The notes under the pieces: generated by a model
The model's input: the letters and a program-made list of their open reading frames with translations, nothing else
Told to the model about the DNA's origin: nothing
Database searches by the model: none
In this document: positions 1 through 9,283 of the stretch, piece by piece
How the letters are laid out: the number at the start of each line of letters is the position of its first letter
Position numbering within the stretch: the first letter of the stretch is position 1
Virus record (IMG/VR): IMGVR_UViG_2534681766_000007
Location: 1-9,283 of that record
Source of the DNA: a virus
Lineage: Duplodnaviria > Heunggongvirae > Uroviricota > Caudoviricetes
Strand: one strand, 5' to 3'
Length of the DNA stretch: 9,283 bases
Position numbers and translations under genes: made by a program

Positions 1-1284
1 TTACTTCTTCGCCTCTGCAACCACTTTACTACCCACGCCGCGGTTATTGTATTCCCACATGCGGTTGTAGTTAGTGTCATTCAGATTGCGCTGTATTTCG
101 TCGTTATCATCTACGCTGCCGGTATTACCCGCAAACGGACGATTAGAGATCACCGCATCGGCCCACGGTTTAGCCGTGTTAAAACCTTCGTTGATGGCGC
201 TATCACGGATCACCACCTGACCGTTGGTATTGGCATCAACATCCAGCGAGCGGCCCAGTTGCGCCACACCATCACCGAAAGCATTGAAACGGCTGTTTAC
301 GGCGAGGAAACCGTAGTAAATGTTGGACAGCGTAGCCGGTGCAAACACATACGCTTCTTGCTGAGTACGTGAGTTCACCACGCGGAATTCGGTGTTATCG
401 AACACCACTGCGCCGCGACCAGAAACGATATCCACATCCCCTTCAATGTAGCTGTTGGTCACCAGCGTACGCGGCTGACGATTCGTTTCCAGACGGTTCT
501 GCACACCGCTGTTGGTGACAAAGAAGGTGTTCTGACGACCGAGAATGTTAACGTTGTTAATCTGTACCTGGTCACCATCAGTACGCAGTGCCACCGCCGG
601 ATGGTTACCTGCATCTACGCTATCGCCCAGCGTGTTTTCGATGGTCAGATTTTGCAGTTGCAGGCCATTGTTTTGTGACCAGAAGACCGCAGAGCAGAGA
701 ACACCGATACTGTCGCTGCGTTTGCTCTGGCAGCTATCGTACATATACCACGCTGGTTTACCTGGCATATATTTGCCGCGCGGGTTGACGTCGTGACGCC
801 AGTCGGCAGGGCTCATGCCACCATCAAGGGAAAGCCCAATCTTCACATCAATCGGTTTTTCACCTGTACCGTACAGAGTAATTCCACCCGGAGCGGCAGG
901 GACATATACCGTTCCCTGATACTCACCAGGCATCACGGCAATATACTGGCGCTTGTTGGTACGCTTGATAATTGCCGCATCTACCGCCGCCTGAATCGTG
1001 GTATGCGTTACACCTTGAGTGCCCGCCGGGCCGACAACAAAGTCAGGTTGCGCAGGCAGGGTAATCGGGGAAGGATTCCACGCTGCTGCACCTGGTGTCA
1101 GGGATGCAAAATAGTGTTGAGCATCGAAATTCTGCGCTTCTTTTGCCGACAGAATCGGGCGAGAAGAGGTACCAGGCGCGGTTTGATCAGAAGGACGTTG
1201 ATCGGGCGGGGTTGAGCTACAGGCGGTCAGCGTCACGCCAAAAGCCAATGCCAGCGCCAGACGGGAAACTGAAAATGTGTTCAC
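1..1284 (-). CDS. ybhC: YbhC-like outer-membrane lipoprotein (pectinesterase / acyl-CoA thioesterase family); host gene flanking attB-lambda
   Basis: Complete 427-aa ORF on minus strand; stop TAA at 1-3, GTG start at 1282-1284 with GGAG about 8 nt upstream. N-terminus MNTFSVSRLALALAFGVTLTAC has a signal peptide plus lipobox (LTAC). Sequence recognised as E. coli YbhC from memory. G+C-rich relative to the prophage cargo. Confidence 0.9.
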   Translation of the reverse strand: MNTFSVSRLALALAFGVTLTACSSTPPDQRPSDQTAPGTSSRPILSAKEAQNFDAQHYFASLTPGAAAWNPSPITLPAQPDFVVGPAGTQGVTHTTIQAAVDAAIIKRTNKRQYIAVMPGEYQGTVYVPAAPGGITLYGTGEKPIDVKIGLSLDGGMSPADWRHDVNPRGKYMPGKPAWYMYDSCQSKRSDSIGVLCSAVFWSQNNGLQLQNLTIENTLGDSVDAGNHPAVALRTDGDQVQINNVNILGRQNTFFVTNSGVQNRLETNRQPRTLVTNSYIEGDVDIVSGRGAVVFDNTEFRVVNSRTQQEAYVFAPATLSNIYYGFLAVNSRFNAFGDGVAQLGRSLDVDANTNGQVVIRDSAINEGFNTAKPWADAVISNRPFAGNTGSVDDNDEIQRNLNDTNYNRMWEYNNRGVGSKVVAEAKK

Positions 1285-1330
1285 AGGTTGCTCCGGGCTA
1301 TGAAATAGAAAAATGAATCCGTTGAAGCCT

Positions 1331-1345
1331 GCTTTTTTATACTAA
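1331..1345. other. attL: phage lambda att common core (GCTTTTTTATACTAA) in attL (B-O-P') configuration
   Basis: Exact 15-bp lambda core at 1331-1345. Flanks read CTGCTTTTTTATACTAAGTTG, i.e. bacterial B arm on the ybhC side and phage P' arm on the int side. Core lies 47 bp upstream of the ybhC start. Confidence 0.9.
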
Positions 1346-1418
1346 GTTGGCATTATAAAAAAGCATTGCTTATCAATTTATTGCAACGAACAGGTCACTA
1401 TCAGTCAAAATAAAATCA
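1346..1418. promoter_or_regulatory. attP P' arm: IHF H'-type site and tandem Int arm-type binding sites
   Basis: TATCAATTTATTG at 1371-1383 fits the IHF consensus WATCAANNNNTTR. Tandem arm-type-like repeats AGGTCACTAT (1392-1401) and CAGTCAAAAT (1402-1411), with a third AAATCATTAT-like copy next to the int stop. Arrangement matches the lambda P' arm as I remember it. Confidence 0.7.
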
Positions 1419-2489
1419 TTATTTGATTTCAATTTTGTCCCACTCCCTGCCTCTGTCATCACGATACTGTGATGCCATGGTGTCCGACTTATGCCCGAGA
1501 AGATGTTGAGCAAACTTATCGCTTATCTGCTTCTCATAGAGTCTTGCAGACAAACTGCGCAACTCGTGAAAGGTAGGCGGATCCCCTTCGAAGGAAAGAC
1601 CTGATGCTTTTCGTGCGCGCATAAAATACCTTGATACTGTGCCGGATGAAAGCGGTTCACGACGAGTAGATGCAATTATGGTTTCTCCGCCAAGAATCTC
1701 TTTGCATTTATCAAGTGTTTCCTTCATTGATATCCCGAGAGCATCAACATGCAATGTTGTTGGGATGGCAATTTTTACGCCTGTTTTGCTTTGCTCGACA
1801 TAAAGATATCCATCTACGATATCAGACCACTTCATTTCGCATAAATCACCAACTCGTTGCCCGGTAACAACAGCCAGTTCCATTGCAAGTCTGAGCCAAC
1901 ATGGTGATGATTCTGCTGCTTGATAAATTTTCAGGTATTCGTCAGCCGTAAGTCTTGATCTCCTTACCTCTGATTTTGCTGCGCGAGTGGCAGCGACAGG
2001 GGTTGTTGTTATATGGCCTTCAGCTATTGCCTCTCGGAATGCATCGCTCAGTGTTGATCTGATTAACTTGGCTGACGCCGCCTTGCCCTCGTCTATGTAT
2101 CCATTGAGCATTGCCGCAATTTCTTTTGTGGTGATGTCTTCAAGTGGAGCATCAGGCAGACCCCTCCTTATTGCTTTAATTTTGCTCATGTAATTTATGA
2201 GTGTCTTCTGCTTGATTCCTCTGCTGGCCAGGATTTTTTCGTAGCGATCAAGCCATGAATGTAACGTAACGGAATTATCACTGTTGATTCTCGCTGTCAG
2301 AGGCTTGTGTTTGTGTCCTGAAAATAACTCAATGTTGGCCTGTATGGCTTCAGTGATTGCAATTCGCCTGTCTCTGCCTAATCCAAACTCTTTACCCGTC
2401 CTTGGGTCCCTGTAGCAGTAATATCCATTGTTTCTTATATAAAGGTTAGGGGGTAAATCCCGGCGCTCATGACTTCGCCTTCTTCCCAT
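1419..2489 (-). CDS. int: tyrosine site-specific integrase, phage lambda Int type (356 aa)
   Basis: Full-length ORF starting MGRRRSHERRDLPPNLYIRNNGYYCYRDPRTGKEFGLGRDRR and ending HLLGHKSDTMASQYRDDRGREWDKIEIK; recognised as essentially lambda Int (catalytic C-terminal domain present). ATG at 2487-2489, stop at 1419-1421, 74 bp from the att core as in lambda. Confidence 0.96.
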   Translation of the reverse strand: MGRRRSHERRDLPPNLYIRNNGYYCYRDPRTGKEFGLGRDRRIAITEAIQANIELFSGHKHKPLTARINSDNSVTLHSWLDRYEKILASRGIKQKTLINYMSKIKAIRRGLPDAPLEDITTKEIAAMLNGYIDEGKAASAKLIRSTLSDAFREAIAEGHITTTPVAATRAAKSEVRRSRLTADEYLKIYQAAESSPCWLRLAMELAVVTGQRVGDLCEMKWSDIVDGYLYVEQSKTGVKIAIPTTLHVDALGISMKETLDKCKEILGGETIIASTRREPLSSGTVSRYFMRARKASGLSFEGDPPTFHELRSLSARLYEKQISDKFAQHLLGHKSDTMASQYRDDRGREWDKIEIK

Positions 2490-2685
2490 TTCTGATCCTC
2501 TTCAAAAGGCTACCTGTTACTGGTCGATTTAAGTCAACCTTTACCGCTGATTCGTGGAACAGATACTCTCTTCCATCCTTAACCGGAGGAGGGAATATCC
2601 TGCACTCGCGTACCCATCGACGAACTGTTTCAAGGCTTCTTGGGCGTCGCTGGCGTGCGTTCCACTCCTGAAGTGTCAAGTACAT
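2467..2685 (-). CDS. xis: excisionase Xis (72 aa), lambda type
   Basis: ORF MYLTLQEWNARQRRPRSLETVRRWVRECRIFPPPVKDGREYLFHESAVKVDLNRPVTGSLLKRIRNGKKAKS recognised as lambda Xis. Its 3' end overlaps the int start by 23 bp (2467-2489), the known lambda arrangement. Confidence 0.95.
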   Translation of the reverse strand: MYLTLQEWNARQRRPRSLETVRRWVRECRIFPPPVKDGREYLFHESAVKVDLNRPVTGSLLKRIRNGKKAKS

Positions 2686-2752
2686 CGCAAAGTCTCCGCA
2701 ATTACACGCAAGAAAAAACCGCCATCAGGCGGCTTGGTGTTCTTTCAGTTCT

Positions 2753-2881
2753 TCAATTCGAATATTGGTTACGTCTGCATGTGCTATATGCGCCCACAGC
2801 ATCCAGTGGTCTGATGTTCTCGGCTTCGATAACTCTGTTGAATGGTTCTCCATTCCATTCACCTGTGACTCGGAAGTGCAT
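2753..2881 (-). CDS. hypothetical 42-codon ORF downstream of xis in the leftward operon (uncertain)
   Basis: ATG at 2879-2881 preceded by a strong SD (GGAGATGATAA then ATG on the minus strand); translates MHFRVTGEWNGEPFNRVIEAENIRPLDAVGAYSTCRRNQYSN. The ORF track instead lists an overlapping 82-aa ORF in another frame (2725-2973), so the frame assignment is unresolved. Confidence 0.25.
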   Translation of the reverse strand: MHFRVTGEWNGEPFNRVIEAENIRPLDAVGAYSTCRRNQYSN

Positions 2882-2931
2882 TTATCATCTCCATAAAACA
2901 AAACCCGCCGTAGCGAGTTCAGATAAAAGAA

Positions 2932-2951
2932 ATCCTCGTCAGTGCGAGGAT
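2932..2951 (-). terminator. hairpin (7-bp stem ATCCTCG / CGAGGAT, 6-nt loop) followed on the minus strand by TTCTTTTATCTG; possible intrinsic terminator or RNA structure at the left edge of the substitution cassette
   Basis: Inverted repeat read directly from sequence; T-rich run follows on the minus strand. It lies where similarity to lambda, as I recall it, ends. Confidence 0.3.
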
Positions 2952-3123
2952 GCTGTTCATTGCTGCTATACACTTTTTTGCTCTCAACGTAAGCGGTAGC
3001 CCATTCTGTTGGGTTGGTGCAGTTGCTTTTAGGAAATGCTATTTACCCCTTAAATGTCGGCTGAAAGAGCTAAAATCCATGCAAAAAATTTACGCAATTT
3101 TGTGTATTATTGTGCAGTAAGTA

Positions 3124-3726
3124 ATGAGCTATTTTCTGCGCAAAAAATGGATGGTAAATTTGTCCGGGTCAGGAAAAATTTTATGGGCGCTAAACATGAA
3201 AAAAGATTCGTATCCTTATTTGATTTGCATGACAGTTTCAGGGCTGATCTTTATTTTCCTTTTCTTCTGGTGGCGGGCAGATATCTACAGGGTCACGTTT
3301 CTTAATCAGAGTATATCCCACTATTACATTCTGTTTAGCATGGGAATAGCTTTTCTGTTATCTCTGTTTTGGGTTAAGAAGGGGATAGTAAAACAAAGAG
3401 GCTGGAAGAGTCTGTCAGCATACCTTAAGGTTTATGCAGGGATGTGCATATTTGCTGGATTTTTTCTGATTATACCCCTTACGACACTAACTTATTTTTT
3501 GCCTGGAGAGACATCGTCTTATGTTGCACCGTATCGGTATACTTCCGGTAGTTCAAAAAGTTGTTCTGGAGCTGAGGTGGATGACCCCGATCTACATGAG
3601 AATATTCGCATTTGCTATCCGTATGGCAATTATGAGTACGATAATATTATCTATGTTGAAAAGAAAATTAATATATTAGGTGCGGTAGTGACATATGCAC
3701 AGACCGCGCGTGATGATACTGAATGA
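3124..3726 (+). CDS. hypothetical membrane protein, three predicted TM helices plus ~75-aa Cys-containing C-terminal domain (predicted periplasmic); AT-rich accessory (moron) gene, candidate superinfection-exclusion or defence factor
   Basis: 200-codon ORF on the opposite strand to the surrounding lambda early-left genes. Hydrophobic segments YPYLICMTVSGLIFIFLFFWW, HYYILFSMGIAFLLSLFWV and YLKVYAGMCIFAGFFLIIPLTTLTYFL; the TM2-TM3 loop is K/R-rich (KKGIVKQRGWK), consistent with N-in/C-out topology. Start is ambiguous (ATG 3124 or 3196, both with weak SD). A 60-nt sample (3301-3360) has 20 G+C, versus 26 of 60 in an int sample. No recognisable family. Confidence 0.6.
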   Translation: MSYFLRKKWMVNLSGSGKILWALNMKKDSYPYLICMTVSGLIFIFLFFWWRADIYRVTFLNQSISHYYILFSMGIAFLLSLFWVKKGIVKQRGWKSLSAYLKVYAGMCIFAGFFLIIPLTTLTYFLPGETSSYVAPYRYTSGSSKSCSGAEVDDPDLHENIRICYPYGNYEYDNIIYVEKKINILGAVVTYAQTARDDTE

Positions 3727-3760
3727 TATAGTATATAGCGGGCAAGTTTTAGTTAATTTA

Positions 3761-3784
3761 TCGAGGTAATATAATTTACCTCGA
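3761..3784 (+). terminator. hairpin TCGAGGTAA-TATAAT-TTACCTCGA downstream of the membrane-protein gene; putative terminator
   Basis: Perfect 9-bp inverted repeat with 6-nt loop, 35 bp after the stop at 3724-3726, followed by CTCGTTTGTTCTGG (moderately T-rich). Confidence 0.4.
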
Positions 3785-3936
3785 CTCGTTTGTTCTGGTA
3801 TTAATATTTCGCTTTACGACCGATTTTTATCTGATGATATCATGCGGTTTTCATATACTGACTTACTGTCTTTTCTCCGTTAGCGATTTTCTCCTGCTCA
3901 GCGATGATTTTATCTTTGGCTTCTAGTTAATTTCGC

Positions 3937-4158
3937 TCACTTCGAACCTCTCTGTTTACTGATAAGCTCCAGATCTTGCTGGCAACTGGCACAAGTCCGA
4001 CAACCCTGAACGGCCAGTCGTCTTCGTTCATCTATCGGATCGCCACACTCACAACAATGAGTGGCAGATATAGCCTGGTGGTTCAGGCGGCGCATTTTTA
4101 TTGCTGTGTTGCGCTGTAATTCTTCAATTTCTGATGCTGAATCAATTATGTCTGCCAT
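3937..4158 (-). CDS. TraR/DksA-family C4-type zinc-finger protein (lambda Orf73-like), 73 aa
   Basis: ORF MADIIDSASEIEELQRNTAIKMRRLNHQAISATHCCECGDPIDERRRLAVQGCRTCASCQQDLELISKQRGSK contains the CxxC...CxxC motif of the TraR/DksA zinc-finger family; ATG at 4156-4158. Size and position match the lambda TraR homologue as I recall it. Confidence 0.85.
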   Translation of the reverse strand: MADIIDSASEIEELQRNTAIKMRRLNHQAISATHCCECGDPIDERRRLAVQGCRTCASCQQDLELISKQRGSK

Positions 4159-4204
4159 CTTTCATTAATCCCTGAATTGTTGGTTAATACGCTTGAGGGT
4201 GAAT

Positions 4205-4234
4205 GCGAATAATAAAAAAGGAGCCTGTAGCTCC
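4205..4234 (-). terminator. intrinsic-terminator-like hairpin (GGAGC-loop-GCTCC) followed by a T-tract on the minus strand
   Basis: On the minus strand the sequence reads GGAGCTACAGGCTCC then TTTTTTATTATT; located between the stop of the upstream ORF (4257) and the Orf73 start (4158). Confidence 0.45.
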
Positions 4235-4256
4235 CTGATGATTTTGCTTTTCATGT

Positions 4257-4538
4257 TCACCGTTCCTTAAAGACGCCGTTCAACATGCCGATCGCCAGGC
4301 TTAAATGAGTCGGTGTGAATCCCATCAGCGTTACCGTTTCGCGGTGCTTCTTTAGTACGCTACGGCAAATGTCATCGACGTTTTTATCCGGAAACTGCTG
4401 TCTGGCTTTTTTGATTTCAGAATTAGCCTGACGGGCAATGCTGCGAAGGGCGTTTTCTTGCTGAGGTGTCATTGAACAAGCCCCATGTCGGCAAGCATAA
4501 GCACACAGAATATGAAGCCCGCTGCCAGAAAAATGCAT
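4257..4538 (-). CDS. small early-left protein (lambda orf61-region homologue); start uncertain, alternative start at 4472 gives 71 aa beginning MTPQQENALRSIARQ
   Basis: Open frame in the ORF track (93 aa). The ATG at 4538 lies immediately after an in-frame TGA, so the N-terminus may be an ORF-finder artefact; the ATG at 4470-4472 overlaps the stop of a 27-codon ORF in ATGA configuration. Confidence 0.45.
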   Translation of the reverse strand: MHFSGSGLHILCAYACRHGACSMTPQQENALRSIARQANSEIKKARQQFPDKNVDDICRSVLKKHRETVTLMGFTPTHLSLAIGMLNGVFKER

Positions 4539-4548
4539 TCAGTGGTTG

Positions 4549-4740
4549 TCATACCTGGTCTCTCTCATCTGCTTCTGCTTTCGCCACCATCATTTCCAGC
4601 TTTTGTGAAAGGGATGCGGCTAACGTATGAAATTCTTCGTCTGTTTCTACTGGTATTGGCACAAACCTGACTCCAATTTGAGCGAGGCTATGTGCCATCT
4701 CGATACTCGTTCTTAACTCAACGGGAGATGCTTTGTGCAT
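4549..4740 (-). CDS. small early-left protein (lambda Orf63-like), 63 aa
   Basis: ORF MHKASPVELRTSIEMAHSLAQIGVRFVPIPVETDEEFHTLAASLSQKLEMMVAKAEADERDQV; ATG at 4738-4740 preceded by a good SD (GGGGAG, 4-nt spacer); length and position match lambda orf63. Confidence 0.7.
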   Translation of the reverse strand: MHKASPVELRTSIEMAHSLAQIGVRFVPIPVETDEEFHTLAASLSQKLEMMVAKAEADERDQV

Positions 4741-4868
4741 ACAGCTCCCCGTTTATTATTTATCTCCTCAGCCAGCCGCTGGGCTTTCAGCGGATTTCGG
4801 ATAACAGAAAGGCCGGGAAATCCCCAGCCTCGCTTTGTAACGGAGTAGACGAAAGTGATCGCGCCTAA
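4713..4868 (-). pseudogene. 5'-truncated orf60a-like gene; N-terminal coding sequence lost at a deletion joint
   Basis: C-terminal 52 codons (GAITFVYSVTKRGWGFPGLSVIRNPLKAQRLAEEINNKRGAVCTKHLPLS) match lambda Orf60a as I recall it and overlap orf63 by 28 bp as in lambda. Upstream of about 4868 the frame runs into antisense tail-fibre sequence. Confidence 0.5.
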
Positions 4869-6229
4869 TGGATGAAACGAACAAGAAAGCGCCCTTAAAT
4901 AGTCCTGCACTGACCGGAACGCCAACAACGCCAACTGCGCCAAAAGGTACTAATAATACTCAGATCGCAAGTACGGCTTATGTGATGGCCGCGATTGCCG
5001 CCCTTGTAGACTCGTCGCCTGACGCACTGAATACGCTGAACGAGTTAGCGGCGGCGCTGGGCAACGACCCGAATTTTGCGACCACCATGACTAACGCGCT
5101 TGCGGGTAAGCAACCGAAAGATGCCACCCTGACGGCGCTGGCCGGGCTTGCTACTGCGGCAGACAGGTTTCCGTATTTTACGGGGAATGATGTCGCCAGC
5201 CTGGCAACCCTGACAAAAGTCGGGCGGGATATTCTTGCGAAATCGACCGTTGCTGCCGTTATCGAATACCTCGGTTTACAGGAAACGGTAAATCAGGCTT
5301 CTGGCGCATTACAGAAAAACCAGAACGGCGCAGATATTCCGGGAAAAGATACCTTCACCAAAAACATTGGTGCCTGCCGCGCATATAGCGCATGGCTGAA
5401 TATTGGTGGCGATAGTCAGGTCTGGACAACTGCGCAATTTATTTCGTGGCTGGAGAGTCAGGGGGCATTTAACCATCCTTACTGGATGTGCAAAGGCTCA
5501 TGGGCTTATGCAAATAATAAGGTTATTACAGATACAGGTTGCGGAAATATTTGTCTTGCAGGTGCTGTGGTGGAAGTTATTGGCACTCGCGGCGCAATGA
5601 CCATACGCGTTACTACGCCGAGCACGTCCAGCGGTGGCGGAATTACTAACGCTCAATTCACTTATATTAATCATGGTGATGCTTACGCTCCTGGCTGGCG
5701 ACGAGACTACAACACGAAAAACCAGCAGCCTGCATTTGCTTTAGGGCAAACAGGACGCAGGGTCGCAAATGATAAAGCTGTTGGCTGGAACTGGAATAGC
5801 GGTGTTTATGATGCAGATATCAGTGGTGCATCGACATTAATCCTCCACTTCAATATGAATGCGGGGAGTTGCCCTGCTGTACAGTTCCGCGTGAATTACA
5901 GGAACGGCGGTATTTTTTATCGTTCAGCGCGTGATGGTTATGGCTTTGAAGCTAACTGGTCAGAGTTTTACACCACAACACGCAAACCCTCTGCGGGGGA
6001 TGTTGGTGCATATACGCAGGCAGAATGTAACTCAAGGTTTATTACAGGTATTCGCCTTGGCGGTCTGTCATCTGTTCAGACATGGAAAGGCCCCGGCTGG
6101 TCTGACAGGTCAGGTTATGTCGTTACGGGTTCAGTTAACGGAAACCGTGATGAATTAATTGATACAACTCAGGCAAGGCCAATTCAGTATTGCATTAATG
6201 GGACGTGGTATAACGCGGGGAGTATTTAA
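4868..6229 (+). CDS. side tail-fibre protein, C-terminal portion (5'-truncated at deletion joint): constant region to about 5284 plus variable domain Sv
   Basis: 453-aa ORF containing the conserved Stf stretch KAPLNSPALTGTPT...IASTAYVMAAIAALVDSSPDALNTLNELAAALGNDPNFATTMTNALAGKQPKDATLTALAGLATAADRFPYFTGNDVASLATLTKVGRDILAKSTVAAVIEYLGLQETVN, which normally sits in the C-terminal third of lambdoid side tail fibres. No SD before the in-frame ATG at 4868; the N-terminal part of the gene is absent. Confidence 0.85.
   Translation: MDETNKKAPLNSPALTGTPTTPTAPKGTNNTQIASTAYVMAAIAALVDSSPDALNTLNELAAALGNDPNFATTMTNALAGKQPKDATLTALAGLATAADRFPYFTGNDVASLATLTKVGRDILAKSTVAAVIEYLGLQETVNQASGALQKNQNGADIPGKDTFTKNIGACRAYSAWLNIGGDSQVWTTAQFISWLESQGAFNHPYWMCKGSWAYANNKVITDTGCGNICLAGAVVEVIGTRGAMTIRVTTPSTSSGGGITNAQFTYINHGDAYAPGWRRDYNTKNQQPAFALGQTGRRVANDKAVGWNWNSGVYDADISGASTLILHFNMNAGSCPAVQFRVNYRNGGIFYRSARDGYGFEANWSEFYTTTRKPSAGDVGAYTQAECNSRFITGIRLGGLSSVQTWKGPGWSDRSGYVVTGSVNGNRDELIDTTQARPIQYCINGTWYNAGSI
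5259..5284. repeat. 26-bp Gin/Pin/Hin/Cin-type crossover site, left end of invertible segment (TTATCGAATACCTCGGTTTACAGGAA)
   Basis: Close to the Mu gix site as I recall it (TTATCCAAAACCTCGGTTTACAGGAA). Inner 25 bp (5268-5292, ACCTCGGTTTACAGGAAACGGTAAA) is a perfect inverted repeat of 8304-8328. Lies inside the tail-fibre reading frame at the constant/variable boundary (EYLGLQETVN). Confidence 0.85.
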
Positions 6230-6231
6230 CG

Positions 6232-6765
6232 ATGATGCACTTAAAAAACATTACTGCTGGCAACCCTAAAACAAAAGAGCAATACCAGCTAACAAAGCAA
6301 TTTAACATCAAATGGCTTTATTCAGATGATGGAAAAAACTGGTATGAGGAACAAAAGAATTTCCAGCCAGACACTTTGAAAATGGTCTATGACCATAACG
6401 GCGTTATTATTTGTATTGAAAAGGATGTTTCAGCAATTAATCCAGAGGGTGCAAGCGTCGTTGAATTACCTGATATTACAGCAAATCGCCGGGCTGATAT
6501 TTCGGGGAAATGGATGTTCAAAGATGGCGTAGTGATAAAGCGAACTTATACCGAGGAAGAGCAGAGGCAACAAGCGGAAAATGAAAAGCAAAGCCTGTTG
6601 CAACTTGTCAGGGATAAAACCCAGCTATGGGACTCACAGCTACGGCTGGGCATCATTTCCGACGAGAATAAACAAAAATTAACCGAGTGGATGCTCTATG
6701 CGCAGAAAGTCGAATCTACAGACACTTCTGGCCTGCCAGTAACGTTTCCCGAACAACCAGAATGA
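6232..6765 (+). CDS. tfa: tail-fibre assembly protein (Tfa / U-type chaperone), 177 aa
   Basis: Starts 2 bp after the tail-fibre stop (TAACGATG). N-terminus [24 protein letters not shown] and overall length typical of Tfa; paralogous to the oppositely oriented ORF at 6794-7321. Confidence 0.85.
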   Translation: MMHLKNITAGNPKTKEQYQLTKQFNIKWLYSDDGKNWYEEQKNFQPDTLKMVYDHNGVIICIEKDVSAINPEGASVVELPDITANRRADISGKWMFKDGVVIKRTYTEEEQRQQAENEKQSLLQLVRDKTQLWDSQLRLGIISDENKQKLTEWMLYAQKVESTDTSGLPVTFPEQPE

Positions 6766-6769
6766 GAGA

Positions 6770-6793
6770 AGGCCCGCTATCGGGCCTTAATTT
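6770..6793. terminator. bidirectional intrinsic terminator between convergent tfa genes (AGGCCCG-CTAT-CGGGCCT followed by TAATTTTT)
   Basis: GC-rich 7-bp stem with 4-nt loop and a T-run on the plus strand; sits between the tfa stop (6763-6765) and the tfa' stop (6794-6796). Confidence 0.55.
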
Positions 6794-7321
6794 TTACTCT
6801 GGTTTTTGTGGCCATTCAGGATTTGCCGTATCCACACGGCTGACCAGAACACTGTAGCGTTCCCATGCTTCCAGTCGTGTGCGTTCCTCGTCTGTTGCCA
6901 TATTCAGCCTGACAGCGCGTTCCAGCGGTTGGATGACTGATTCAGCTTCGGAAAGCAATGCGGCCTTTTGTGATTCGGCCTGTTGTTGTTGCTCGTCTGC
7001 CGTATAAATCCGTTTAACCACAGCTCCGTCCCTAAACATCCACTTACCGGAATCATCAGCGCGGCGGTTGGCTGTAATATCTGGAACCTCAACGACGCTA
7101 TAACCTTCAGGGTTAAGCGTGGAGGCATCTTTGGTGATGGCGACAATAATATTATTTGCATCGTAAACAATCTTTATTGTGTCTGGCTGAAAGTTTTTCA
7201 CTTCCTCATACCAGTTTTTTCCGTCTTCGGACCATAACCAGATAACATCAAAATTCTTTGTTAGCTGATATTGTTCTTTTGTTTTTGGTTTTCCAGACTT
7301 AATATTTTTTAAATGCTGCAT
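6794..7321 (-). CDS. tfa: alternate tail-fibre assembly protein (Tfa' / U'), 175 aa
   Basis: N-terminus [24 protein letters not shown] is paralogous to the plus-strand Tfa, with a divergent C-terminal half; start ATG at 7319-7321, 3 bp after the Sv' stop. Confidence 0.85.
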
Positions 7322-7324
7322 AAA

Positions 7325-8323
7325 TTACACCTGTACGACGTTATACCATGTGCCATTGATGTATTTTTGTATTGGTCTGAATACTGCCGGATCATCGCCA
7401 TCAACTGCACCGATAATGCCAAGCCCCGTAATTGCATGACCTGATTTCTCATACATCACGCCTTTTTGCATAGTCTGAACAACACGTGTACCAAGTCGGA
7501 CATCTCTCACATAACGTGGGTCAAAATTACCATAATTGCCGGGAATAACTTGCGCACCGCAAAGCCAGTTGCCATTGTTGTCCATGTACGCCTGACCATC
7601 GGTGCCATTGGCTGTCCTTGAGTTATTAATCATGTAGATGCCAAATTGCTTATTCCCCAGTCCACCAATCATAAATTTGCGATCAGCGTGGTCCTGACGA
7701 AGTAATGCCTGCGCACCATCGGTGGATACCGCATTGCGTCCCAAAATAACATTCTGGTCACGCATATGAATCCACATGCCGGTACTACTGTTAATTGCAA
7801 AACGGTTTGCAAATATATCCCCTGTAACATCAAGACCATGCCCCATGCTTATCCGACCAGTTCTGAGATTAAGCGTAAAGGGGCGTAGTGGCCCTATATC
7901 ACCATTTTCTCCCTCATTCTCTCGTGTAGGGATGATATGCAGGCATTCTTCAGAGCGACGAAAAATAGCACCAAAAGATGAATTAAATATCCTCAGTGCA
8001 TTGACTGTCGATATTTTTACTTCACTGCTGAAAAGGGCTTTAACAAGGACAGACAAAGCATCCCATTTAAGAGTCATCAGGTCTTTTGTTGTGGTGCTCT
8101 GGCGGCTTCTCCATTTGAAATATTCATTGCCGTTGTCGCCTGTTTCAAACCACATGTATGAATCAGTGTCGCTGTCGGCATTATTTTTAAAACCAATCTT
8201 TGCCCAGTCAGTATTTCTAATCCAGGCAAGGATTGAGTCGTTTTCAAAAGTAAGCCCACCGGACAAGGTATCGCCATTCTTTTGCACGGCGTTCCTGGCC
8301 CTGTTTACCGTTTCCTGTAAACC
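7325..8323 (-). CDS. alternate tail-fibre variable C-terminal domain (Sv'); no start of its own, expressed only when inversion joins it to the constant region
   Basis: Reading from the right crossover site on the minus strand gives ...YLGLQETVNRARNAVQKNGDTLSGGLTFENDSILAW..., in frame with the constant-region motif and continuing to a stop at 7325-7327. Ends ...FRPIQKYINGTWYNVVQV, parallel to the Sv ending ...RPIQYCINGTWYNAGSI. Confidence 0.8.
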   Translation of the reverse strand, partial: GLQETVNRARNAVQKNGDTLSGGLTFENDSILAWIRNTDWAKIGFKNNADSDTDSYMWFETGDNGNEYFKWRSRQSTTTKDLMTLKWDALSVLVKALFSSEVKISTVNALRIFNSSFGAIFRRSEECLHIIPTRENEGENGDIGPLRPFTLNLRTGRISMGHGLDVTGDIFANRFAINSSTGMWIHMRDQNVILGRNAVSTDGAQALLRQDHADRKFMIGGLGNKQFGIYMINNSRTANGTDGQAYMDNNGNWLCGAQVIPGNYGNFDPRYVRDVRLGTRVVQTMQKGVMYEKSGHAITGLGIIGAVDGDDPAVFRPIQKYINGTWYNVVQV

Positions 8324-8337
8324 GAGGTTTTAGATAA
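8312..8337. repeat. 26-bp Gin/Pin/Hin/Cin-type crossover site, right end of invertible segment (TTCCTGTAAACCGAGGTTTTAGATAA)
   Basis: One mismatch to the Mu gixL sequence as I recall it (TTCCTGTAAACCGAGGTTTTGGATAA); inverted with respect to the site at 5259-5284. Confidence 0.85.
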
Positions 8338-8391
8338 TGGCGGTTTCTGGCCTGCATGGCATGATTTGTGCTTTTGGACGGGAGATTCAGC

Positions 8392-8625
8392 GTGCTGATT
8401 GGCTATGTAAGGGTATCAACAAATGACCAGAATACAGACCTGCAACGAAACGCTCTTGTTTGTGCAGGATGTGAACAAATATTTGAAGATAAATTAAGCG
8501 GAATAAGGACAGGCCGACCTGGATTAAAACGTGCTTTAAAGCGCCTTCAAAAAGGTGACGCACTGGTTGTCTGGAAACTGGACTGACTGGGTCACTGTAT
8601 GCGGCATCTTGTCGTGCTGGTGGTG
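8392..8625 (+). pseudogene. pin: serine DNA invertase (Pin/Gin/Hin/Cin family) remnant: N-terminal catalytic fragment interrupted by in-frame TGA after codon 64, then 3'-truncated
   Basis: GTG at 8392 with GGAG 7 nt upstream; translation VLIGYVRVSTNDQNTDLQRNALVCAGCEQIFEDKLSGIRTGRPGLKRALKRLQKGDALVVWKLD carries the invertase active-site serine context (VRVSTNDQ). TGA at 8584-8586 where family members have an Arg codon (DRLGRS), a few more invertase-like codons (MRHLVVLV), then unrelated sequence. The helix-turn-helix DNA-binding C-terminus is absent. Confidence 0.85.
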
Positions 8626-8718
8626 GAAGCCTGGAAAAAGTATCGGGGGTTGCTGAACCGTGTTGATACATCAACTGCACCGGATATTGAATGGCCAACA
8701 GGACCCATTATCGAATAG
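8626..8718 (+). pseudogene. 3'-terminal fragment of a tail-fibre assembly (tfa) gene fused in frame to the pin remnant
   Basis: Translation [30 protein letters not shown] then stop (TAG 8716-8718). This matches the Tfa C-terminal pattern seen in both tfa genes of this window (...[26 protein letters not shown] and ...LTEWMLYAQKVESTDTSGLPVTFPEQPE) and the lambda Tfa C-terminus as I recall it. Confidence 0.6.
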
Positions 8719-8729
8719 TGCATTACGAA

Positions 8730-8762
8730 CTGCAGGATATTATATGGGATAATATTCTGCAG
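8730..8762. terminator. 13-bp stem hairpin (CTGCAGGATATTA / TAATATTCTGCAG, one G-U pair) followed by TTTATT; putative bidirectional terminator between the convergent pin/tfa remnant and the GGDEF gene
   Basis: Inverted repeat read directly from sequence at 8730-8742 and 8750-8762 with a 7-nt loop; 30 bp upstream of the GGDEF gene stop (8792-8794) on the opposite strand. Confidence 0.4.
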
Positions 8763-8791
8763 TTTATTGGGGCTGTATTTTAAAAAGGTGT

Positions 8792-9283
8792 TTATTTTGA
8801 GTGAGTTATCACCTTGTTTTTTCCGGTTCTTTTGGCTTGATATAACGCTTTATCGGCATTGACTAACATTTCAGATGGACTGAGATTATTCTCTTTTGAA
8901 GTAAAGCAACCAATACTGACAGTTATTTTCTCAGGTCCATGCGATAATAATTTTTCCGAGCATTGCTCTTCAATGTTTTTTCTGATTCGCTCTGCAATTG
9001 ATAGCAAGAGCTTTTGAGTATTACCTTTAATGATAATACCGAACTCCTCACCGCCTAAGCGCCCTAATATATCCTCTTTCCTGATGGATTTTTTTATTAT
9101 TCTGGTAACCATTACTATGACTTGATCACCCATATGATGCCCCCATTTGTCATTGATGCTTTTGAAATTGTCAATATCTAACATTATTACTGAGAAATCA
9201 TGGTGTTTTGATATATTCTTCAATGAGTCAATAAAGTATCTTCTATTGTATGTATTCGTTAGTGGATCATGAATTGCCATATG
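8792..9283 (-). CDS. GGDEF-domain diguanylate cyclase, C-terminal catalytic domain (5' end of gene lies beyond the window)
   Basis: Frame contains the GGDEF-domain start motif DPLTNTYNRRYF, the active-site motif GGEEF (LGRLGGEEFGIII) and an RxxD I-site (RKED) five residues upstream of it. The frame is open to the window edge, so the listed Met is probably internal. AT-rich: 20 G+C in the 60 nt 8881-8940. Confidence 0.8.
   Translation of the reverse strand, partial: HMAIHDPLTNTYNRRYFIDSLKNISKHHDFSVIMLDIDNFKSINDKWGHHMGDQVIVMVTRIIKKSIRKEDILGRLGGEEFGIIIKGNTQKLLLSIAERIRKNIEEQCSEKLLSHGPEKITVSIGCFTSKENNLSPSEMLVNADKALYQAKRTGKNKVITHSK

Follow-up and report, generated by a model that had tools for sequence, protein, structure and literature searches.

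The window analyzed here is the whole 9,283-nucleotide stretch of IMG/VR virus record IMGVR_UViG_2534681766_000007 (positions 1 to 9,283; Caudoviricetes). Its central feature is a segment of ~3.05 kb (5272..8324) in which two tail-fiber tips and their chaperones face each other between inverted recombination sites, next to the stump of a serine invertase gene. The locus is a known kind of switch, of the Gin/Pin type, in a decayed prophage, and what we add is clear evidence of continued flipping, in natural Escherichia coli populations, of a G-type segment that has been orphaned. An initial annotation, made from the sequence alone, had described the switch as frozen by the loss of its invertase.

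A 5'-truncated side-tail-fiber open reading frame (ORF) of 453 amino acids, Sc-Sv, enters the segment from the left (4868-6229, + strand; Pfam gp37_C). Its constant part, Sc (4868-5271, +), lies outside the segment, and its variable tip, Sv, lies inside it, ends at 6229 on the + strand and resembles Mu S', with 334 of the 425 aligned residues identical. The chaperone gene tfa follows at 6232-6765 (+; Pfam Caudo_TAP, E = 2e-36), and its product is Mu U'-like (172/177 residues identical). The opposite strand carries the alternate chaperone gene tfa' at 6794-7321 (Caudo_TAP, E = 1e-37), which is Mu U-like (164/175 identical), and the alternate tip Sv' at 7325-8311 (Pfam Gp34_trimer), which is Mu Sv-like. 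The Sv' frame is open from the right repeat to its stop codon and has no start of its own, so it can be read only after inversion. Exchanging the strands in silico at the central dinucleotides of the two sites joined Sc in frame to Sv' in a fusion of 467 amino acids (versus 453 as the sequence stands), of which 264 of 431 aligned residues are identical to Mu S. We show that the segment holds two opposed sets of tip and chaperone, and that the constant 5' part is in frame with a tip in either orientation. Residues 1-168 of the truncated ORF are 96% identical to residues 537-704 of a 1057-amino-acid Stf. The Sc region is also 95% identical to the matching part of a P2-like fiber gene and is found in long lambdoid Stf proteins.

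The segment is bounded by two gix-type sites of 26 bp in inverted orientation. The left site (5259-5284; reverse complement TTCCTGTAAACCGAGGTATTCGATAA) matches Mu gix at 24/26 positions and has its center, TC, at 5271-5272, and the right site (8312-8337; TTCCTGTAAACCGAGGTTTTAGATAA) matches at 25/26 and has its center, GA, at 8324-8325; the reference for both counts is gix as read in the Mu record (TTCCTGTAAACCGAGGTTTTGGATAA). The central dinucleotides TC/GA are the same as in Mu, in inverted orientation, and the inner half-sites are identical, giving the pair of inverted 26-bp sites with identical central dinucleotides that marks the Din family. Both sites lie inside the 38-nt arms of an inverted repeat (5255-5292 and 8304-8341), which are complementary at 35/38 positions and include a perfect core of 25 nt (5268-5292 and 8304-8328); by our own arithmetic, ~4e-8 perfect inverted 25-mer matches would be expected by chance in a stretch of 9.3 kb. 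Two further pairs of inverted repeats, 6232-6392 versus 7161-7321 (161 nt, 75%) and 6176-6215 versus 7339-7378 (40 nt, 78%), were considered as extra crossover sites and rejected, as they reflect homology between the two chaperone genes at their 5' ends and between the two fiber tips at their 3' ends, respectively.

Nucleotide comparison with Mu extends across the whole arrangement. Window positions 5256-7846 are 89% identical to Mu in reverse orientation, 8033-8337 are 95% identical, and 8300-8582, which covers the right repeat and the 5' end of the invertase gene, is 93% identical. On these alignments, the segment is closely homologous to the G segment of phage Mu and stands in the window in the arrangement equivalent to G(-). 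The architecture proposed in the initial annotation is upheld at each of these points: re-inspection recovered the inverted 26-bp sites and the perfect 25-bp repeat at the positions it had given; the ORFs, the Pfam matches and the simulated flip agree with its constant region feeding into Sv-tfa opposite Sv'-tfa'; the sites, gene sets and Mu homology agree with its assignment to the Gin/Pin-type tail-fiber switches; and the fiber gene is 5'-truncated as it had said, residue 1 of the ORF corresponding to residue 537 of the 1057-amino-acid Stf.

The invertase (gin/pin) stump occupies 8392..8623 on the + strand and consists of 64 codons, a TGA at 8584-8586 and 12 further invertase codons. The ORF up to the TGA (8392-8586) aligns to positions 2-73 of the 145 in Pfam Resolvase, and 187 of its 195 nt are identical to Mu gin, including all of the first 112. 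Its product keeps Ser9 and lacks the E-helix, over half of the catalytic domain and the entire C-terminal DNA-binding domain. The 64-amino-acid product is not a complete serine recombinase, and no intact invertase combining a Ser9 domain, an E-helix and a C-terminal helix-turn-helix adjoins the segment, the invertase codons ending at ~77. Because the stump has no DNA-binding domain and its invertase codons stop there, the system is an orphan, non-autonomous member of the Din-family tail-fiber segments.

At ~8624 the frame passes without a shift from invertase codons into the last ~30 codons and the stop of a lambda-type tfa (8626..8718, +; Caudo_TAP positions 104-130 of 131, E = 1e-11). This tfa end aligns to the 3' end of lambda orf-194 (tfa) and is annotated by RefSeq in relatives as a partial tail fiber assembly protein. 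The stump itself is a mosaic, with 8392-8582 of Mu-gin type (96%) and 8600-8623 identical to pinE of the e14 prophage and unlike Mu gin; between them, 8583-8599 shows six changes in 16 nt relative to pinE, the TGA among them. Reading the stump as an allele of e14 pinE was rejected, as its first 190 nt are of Mu-gin type (96%) and only 8583-8623 is pinE-like. Also rejected was the idea that a simple CGA-to-TGA mutation is the sole damage to the gene, as the gene ends in a fusion 12 codons on. Judging from this structure, the primary lesion is the fusion or deletion joint at ~8624 to the lambda-type tfa 3' end, and not the TGA. In one sublineage (PSS-16 and 2018-02-2CC), codon 65 reads TGG and the stop lies instead at codon 29 (CAA to TAA), which suggests that nonsense mutations accumulated independently in an already truncated gene, after the joint had formed. 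These results agree with several statements of the initial annotation, namely that the invertase keeps 64 codons before a TGA and has no DNA-binding C-terminus, and that, with the element's own enzyme dead, inversion would depend on one acting in trans. Its remark that the sequence past 8620 is unrelated to invertase is accurate, the invertase-like codons reaching 8623 before the tfa end begins, and read-through of the TGA would indeed yield no functional invertase, as the frame beyond it leads into tfa.

The window contains a single Chi octamer (GCTGGTGG; 8616..8623, +), which ends exactly at the gin/tfa joint; pinE of e14 carries this octamer natively at the corresponding position. It could be a coincidence or a trace of RecBCD-stimulated recombination, and we build nothing on it. 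In a P2-like prophage, a cassette 94-95% identical to this one is accompanied by an intact invertase homologue of ~200 amino acids. No deposited phage genome in the collection searched covers ≥80% of 8290-8790, the region of the gin/tfa joint, and the orphan arrangement has so far been seen in chromosomal prophages only. We found no sigma-70-like promoter in 4300-5000, for the truncated stf ORF, or in 8250-8820, for the stump; there is therefore no support for expression of either.

The cis-acting enhancer of Mu presumably lies within the first ~170 bp of gin. Our home-made scan of the stump for the Fis consensus returned two 15-mers, at 8462-8476 and 8485-8499, which are identical in Mu and 23 bp apart. 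They do not reproduce the expected 48-bp spacing, and we claim no exact Fis sites. Published work places three Fis sites in the gin coding region and states no more than that (PMC3378877).

Whether such an orphan still changes orientation can be read from other genomes. We searched complete E. coli genomes at a coverage of ≥80% with an 811-nt probe that starts in the segment interior, crosses the right site, takes in the stump and the gin/tfa joint and ends at 8760, and with its simulated flipped counterpart. The probe in the orientation of the window was found in 97 complete genomes and the flipped probe in 56, of which ~26 run through the same flank at the lambda attachment site (att-lambda); the remaining flipped-probe genomes carry a second lambdoid prophage, at ompW-yciE, with the same TGA and the same joint. 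Taking both orientations together, ~150 complete E. coli genomes share the identical stump and joint. The 64-amino-acid stump product (WP_001378636.1) is present in 9 of 12 fetched loci and is annotated beside both orientations.

The loci fetched were twelve copies at att-lambda, six per orientation, and 3 kb of their right flank, covering the stump, the diguanylate cyclase gene dgcX and ybhB, was aligned. The flanks fall into three haplotype groups, ~20 differences apart, each of which holds both orientations. Strains 13C1065T and PSS-13 have no mismatch in 3,862 + 748 nt of flank and share an stf frameshift, and the segment is inverted between them; its interior is 100% identical, and the only 6 mismatches are the 3 + 3 outer-repeat positions that stay with the flanks. 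Strains PSS-16 and 2018-02-2CC differ by 1 flank mismatch and share the rare TAA29/TGG65 stump, and here the segment is inverted with 2 internal differences. Across the two pairs, the flanks show 0-1 differences over 3.5-4.6 kb. The same clean inversion separates the window from strain BS15R-A, which carries an apparently tail-complete lambdoid prophage with the same stump. The breakpoints of these natural inversions lie within the 25-bp core of the gix-type sites.

Here, we show that the same orphan locus stands in both orientations in other genomes (97 versus 56), separated by clean inversions. Because orientation varies within near-identical flank haplotypes bearing the same stump, inversion has recurred after the loss of the invertase, with at least three independent events since its destruction, in genomes other than the window's own strain. 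At the population level, the comparison indicates a switch that is crippled yet not frozen, and the initial annotation's claim to the contrary fails, as the same stump and joint are found elsewhere in both orientations within near-identical haplotypes.

The locus also varies in other ways. Strain FDAARGOS_1077 holds two orphan cassettes with the same stump and joint, one at ompW-yciE and one at att-lambda; they belong to two different lambdoid prophages, are ~98% identical and stand in opposite orientations. Segment decay is seen in some strains, with IS1 truncating the segment in 74-2 and IS903B inserted in tfa' in 2017.17.03CC. Part of the segment is deleted in M9682-C1, next to a J-gene fragment.

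Considering the sites, the gene sets and the natural inversions together, we hold it very probable that the locus is a tail-fiber inversion switch of the Din family (Gin/Cin/Pin/Hin), homologous to the Mu G segment, that has been orphaned and can still be flipped in trans. The flipping would most likely be done by a trans-acting Din invertase. Gin, Hin and their sites are interchangeable (PMC1904230), and PinQ, PinR and PinE each invert the e14 P segment in K-12 (PMC12529663).

Several points weigh against this interpretation. Strains 13C1065T and PSS-13 show no second gin-type copy at ≥85% identity, more distant Pin-type genes not having been checked. The window's own genome lies outside the complete genomes searched. 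The left site carries two changes relative to Mu gix, both in the outer half, which may affect binding. A complete, retained enhancer is putative, its basis being the near-identity of the gin 5' end to that of Mu. Finally, the breakpoints can be placed only somewhere in the 25-bp identical core, which fits an exchange anywhere within it and not just at the central dinucleotide.

One alternative is that the relic is truly frozen in the genome from which the window came, its cis sites being present and the source strain having no compatible invertase. The resident invertase is dead, and ~31% of complete E. coli genomes have no blastn-detectable invertase homologue. Against this, at least three flips have taken place beside identical stumps in other genomes, within near-identical haplotypes, and ~69% of the genomes (3,760/5,426, of which 1,103 carry a near full-length gene) hold some Din-family homologue by blastn. 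A transient Mu-, P1- or P2-like infection would also supply the enzyme. We consider a relic frozen in its own genome possible, and on balance doubtful.

The orphan segment might instead be a maintained design in dgcX-carrying lambdoid prophages at att-lambda and ompW-yciE, with host-range switching outsourced to the Din invertases of co-resident prophages or superinfecting phages; in remnants, the truncated Stf might be an invertase-toggled host phage-defense or decoy protein of the StfE2 type. Some dgcX-carrying lambdoid prophages keep an apparently intact tail-gene end. We regard such a design as improbable.

That the natural flips arose by RecA-dependent homologous recombination between the 38-nt inverted repeats, and not by site-specific exchange, is an explanation with which the loosely placed breakpoints are compatible. 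However, 25 bp is at or below the length at which RecA works efficiently, going by the minimal processing segments established for E. coli, and genomes that differ at just 0-1 positions in 3.5-4.6 kb of flank are separated by a flip, which implies a rate that is high relative to point mutation. The repeats are, moreover, bona fide gix sites beside a conserved, putative enhancer region, and we judge RecA-dependent exchange very unlikely. Replacement of the cassette by an oppositely oriented copy from a P2-like or Mu-like prophage, in place of inversion in situ, could draw on the 89-95% identical cassettes in P2-like prophages and Mu and on the two copies that some genomes hold, and is nevertheless essentially refuted by the sequence comparison: the 13C1065T/PSS-13 interior is 100% identical, with differences at outer-repeat positions only, and the second pair shows 2 differences in 3 kb, where a donor with 5-11% divergence would leave dozens.

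In Din-family switches, an invertase dimer binds each 26-bp site and a Fis-bound enhancer assembles the invertasome on supercoiled DNA; a cut staggered by 2 bp at the center of the site, rotation of the strands by 180 degrees and religation complete the exchange. For a switch that has been orphaned and is flipped in trans, we propose the following history. A G-type cassette from a Mu- or P2-like phage may have been grafted onto the lambdoid stf-tfa region at att-lambda, replacing most of the resident genes. The left crossover would have been homologous, within the shared constant part of the fiber gene, and the right one illegitimate, fusing the invertase gene at codon ~77 with the resident lambda-type tfa, of which the last ~30 codons remained. 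The E-helix and the DNA-binding domain would have been lost at the graft, or never acquired, with the nonsense codons arising later. The cis-acting parts survive in the window, namely the two gix-type sites, with matching centers, and the gin 5' end, which in Mu contains the Fis enhancer. Any Din-family invertase present in trans, whether of PinE/PinQ/PinR type or brought by an infecting Mu-, P1- or P2-like phage, could then flip the 3.05-kb segment together with Fis. Strand exchange at the central dinucleotide would swap the S'/U'-like tip and chaperone for the S/U-like set. Subsequently, a deletion that reaches from the early-left operon into stf at codon 537 removed all virion genes in the window, and the remaining cassette is a relic that could be flipped in trans and a possible donor of tail-fiber modules by recombination.

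The element that carries the switch is laid out as follows. The left end of the window is chromosomal ybhC (1-1284, - strand), followed by a lambda-type integrase gene, int, at 1419-2489, a lambda-type excisionase gene, xis, at 2467-2685, and a few early-left-operon genes up to ~4866. Between xis and a TraR/DksA-type gene, a 200-amino-acid ORF with hydrophobic stretches (3124-3726, +) runs on the strand opposite to the early-left operon; the H10407 annotation gives only a hypothetical protein, and the ORF may be a moron. The window is colinear with enterotoxigenic E. coli (ETEC) H10407 over 1-4867, where exo-bet-gam-kil-cIII come next, and with strain 13C1065T over 4866-9283. The two parts meet at a deletion joint (4866..4867): to its left, in the early-left operon, is the DUF1317 gene that neighbors exo, and to its right is stf codon 537. 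The two sides share just ~2 bp (AA).

With ybhC, int and xis at 1-2685 and, in relatives, a right end that reads dgcX-ybhB-bioA, the host element is a lambdoid prophage at att-lambda that has lost the whole stretch separating the early-left operon from the last 40% of stf. A joint probe found the deletion joint in 0 of 5,426 complete E. coli genomes, an exact 35-mer across it had no match in the GTDB species representatives, and the whole window had no place with ≥80% coverage in the 5,426 genomes. The window's lineage is absent from these complete genomes and from the GTDB representatives, because the deletion joint is absent from them. All four ORFs of the invertible segment are intact, which fits a recent deletion from a prophage family that still uses the cassette.

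The right end of the window holds the 3' part of a diguanylate cyclase gene (8792-9283, - strand; Pfam GGDEF, E = 7e-46), which runs beyond the window. In relatives the full gene at this position measures 1332 nt and is followed by ybhB-bioA. By its position at att-lambda, beside lambdoid DNA and before ybhB-bioA, we take this GGDEF gene to be the dgcX of enteroaggregative E. coli (EAEC)/O104:H4 and ETEC strains (PMC4287979), a gene described as always adjoining lambdoid prophage DNA at attB (PMC4287979). At least 5 alleles of the DgcX protein occur among the 12 fetched loci. The gene is cargo at the right end of the prophage, outside the switch, and is given as context only.

The locus has several close counterparts among known systems. 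The Mu G segment with gin is alike in length (~3.05 kb), gene order, gix sites (24-25/26), central dinucleotide, nucleotide identity (89-95%) and chaperones (94-97% amino acid identity). It differs in that the constant part here is not Mu Sc but the C-terminal third of a lambdoid/P2-type fiber gene, in that the invertase here is reduced to a 64-codon stump joined to the 3' end of a lambda tfa, and in that the host here is a lambdoid prophage at att-lambda whereas Mu is a transposable phage. The H/G cassette of P2-like prophages (e.g., in E. coli S931B) shares the constant region (95%), one tip and both chaperones (94%), and gixR with the invertase 5' end (95%), although it has an intact invertase of ~200 amino acids, a different second-tip module and a myovirus tail gene cluster. 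From these matches, the P2-like prophage cassette is a likely donor type.

The e14 P segment with pinE in K-12 is comparable as an invertible segment in a defective lambdoid prophage with a truncated fiber gene, one that invertases from other parts of the chromosome can invert (PMC12529663; PMC4272514), and the stump is identical to pinE at 8600-8623. In contrast, e14 has an intact adjacent PinE, a segment of 1.8 kb, sites reading TTCTCCCAAACCAAGGTTTTCGAGAG and different fiber modules, and pinE overall is just 74% identical to the stump. The Salmonella H segment is flipped by Fin of Fels-2 as well as by Hin, a precedent for service by the invertase of an unrelated prophage (cited in PMC12529663 and PMC4272514); unlike the segment here, it controls a flagellin promoter and not a fiber coding sequence, and its own Hin is intact.

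The initial annotation held that any inversion would be phenotypically silent for this element. For the phage, this stands: with stf cut at codon 537 and every other morphogenesis gene deleted, the element is unable to make virions, and orientation therefore cannot affect its host range. For the host, the claim is unproven, given the report that inversion in e14 by the invertases of other prophages changes phage sensitivity and creates a fiber fragment that blocks T2 adsorption (PMC12529663).

The locus offers a natural experiment, in which a segment whose invertase was destroyed by one recognizable fusion still changes orientation between otherwise identical loci. The orphan segment still flips, and an annotation of a dead invertase therefore does not imply a fixed orientation; in genome comparison and assembly, 3-kb inversions between near-clonal isolates should be expected. 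The observation bears on how the tail-fiber remnants of cryptic prophages, recently linked to phage defense, are read, and it portrays the Din-family switches of one cell as a network that its prophages share and service in trans.

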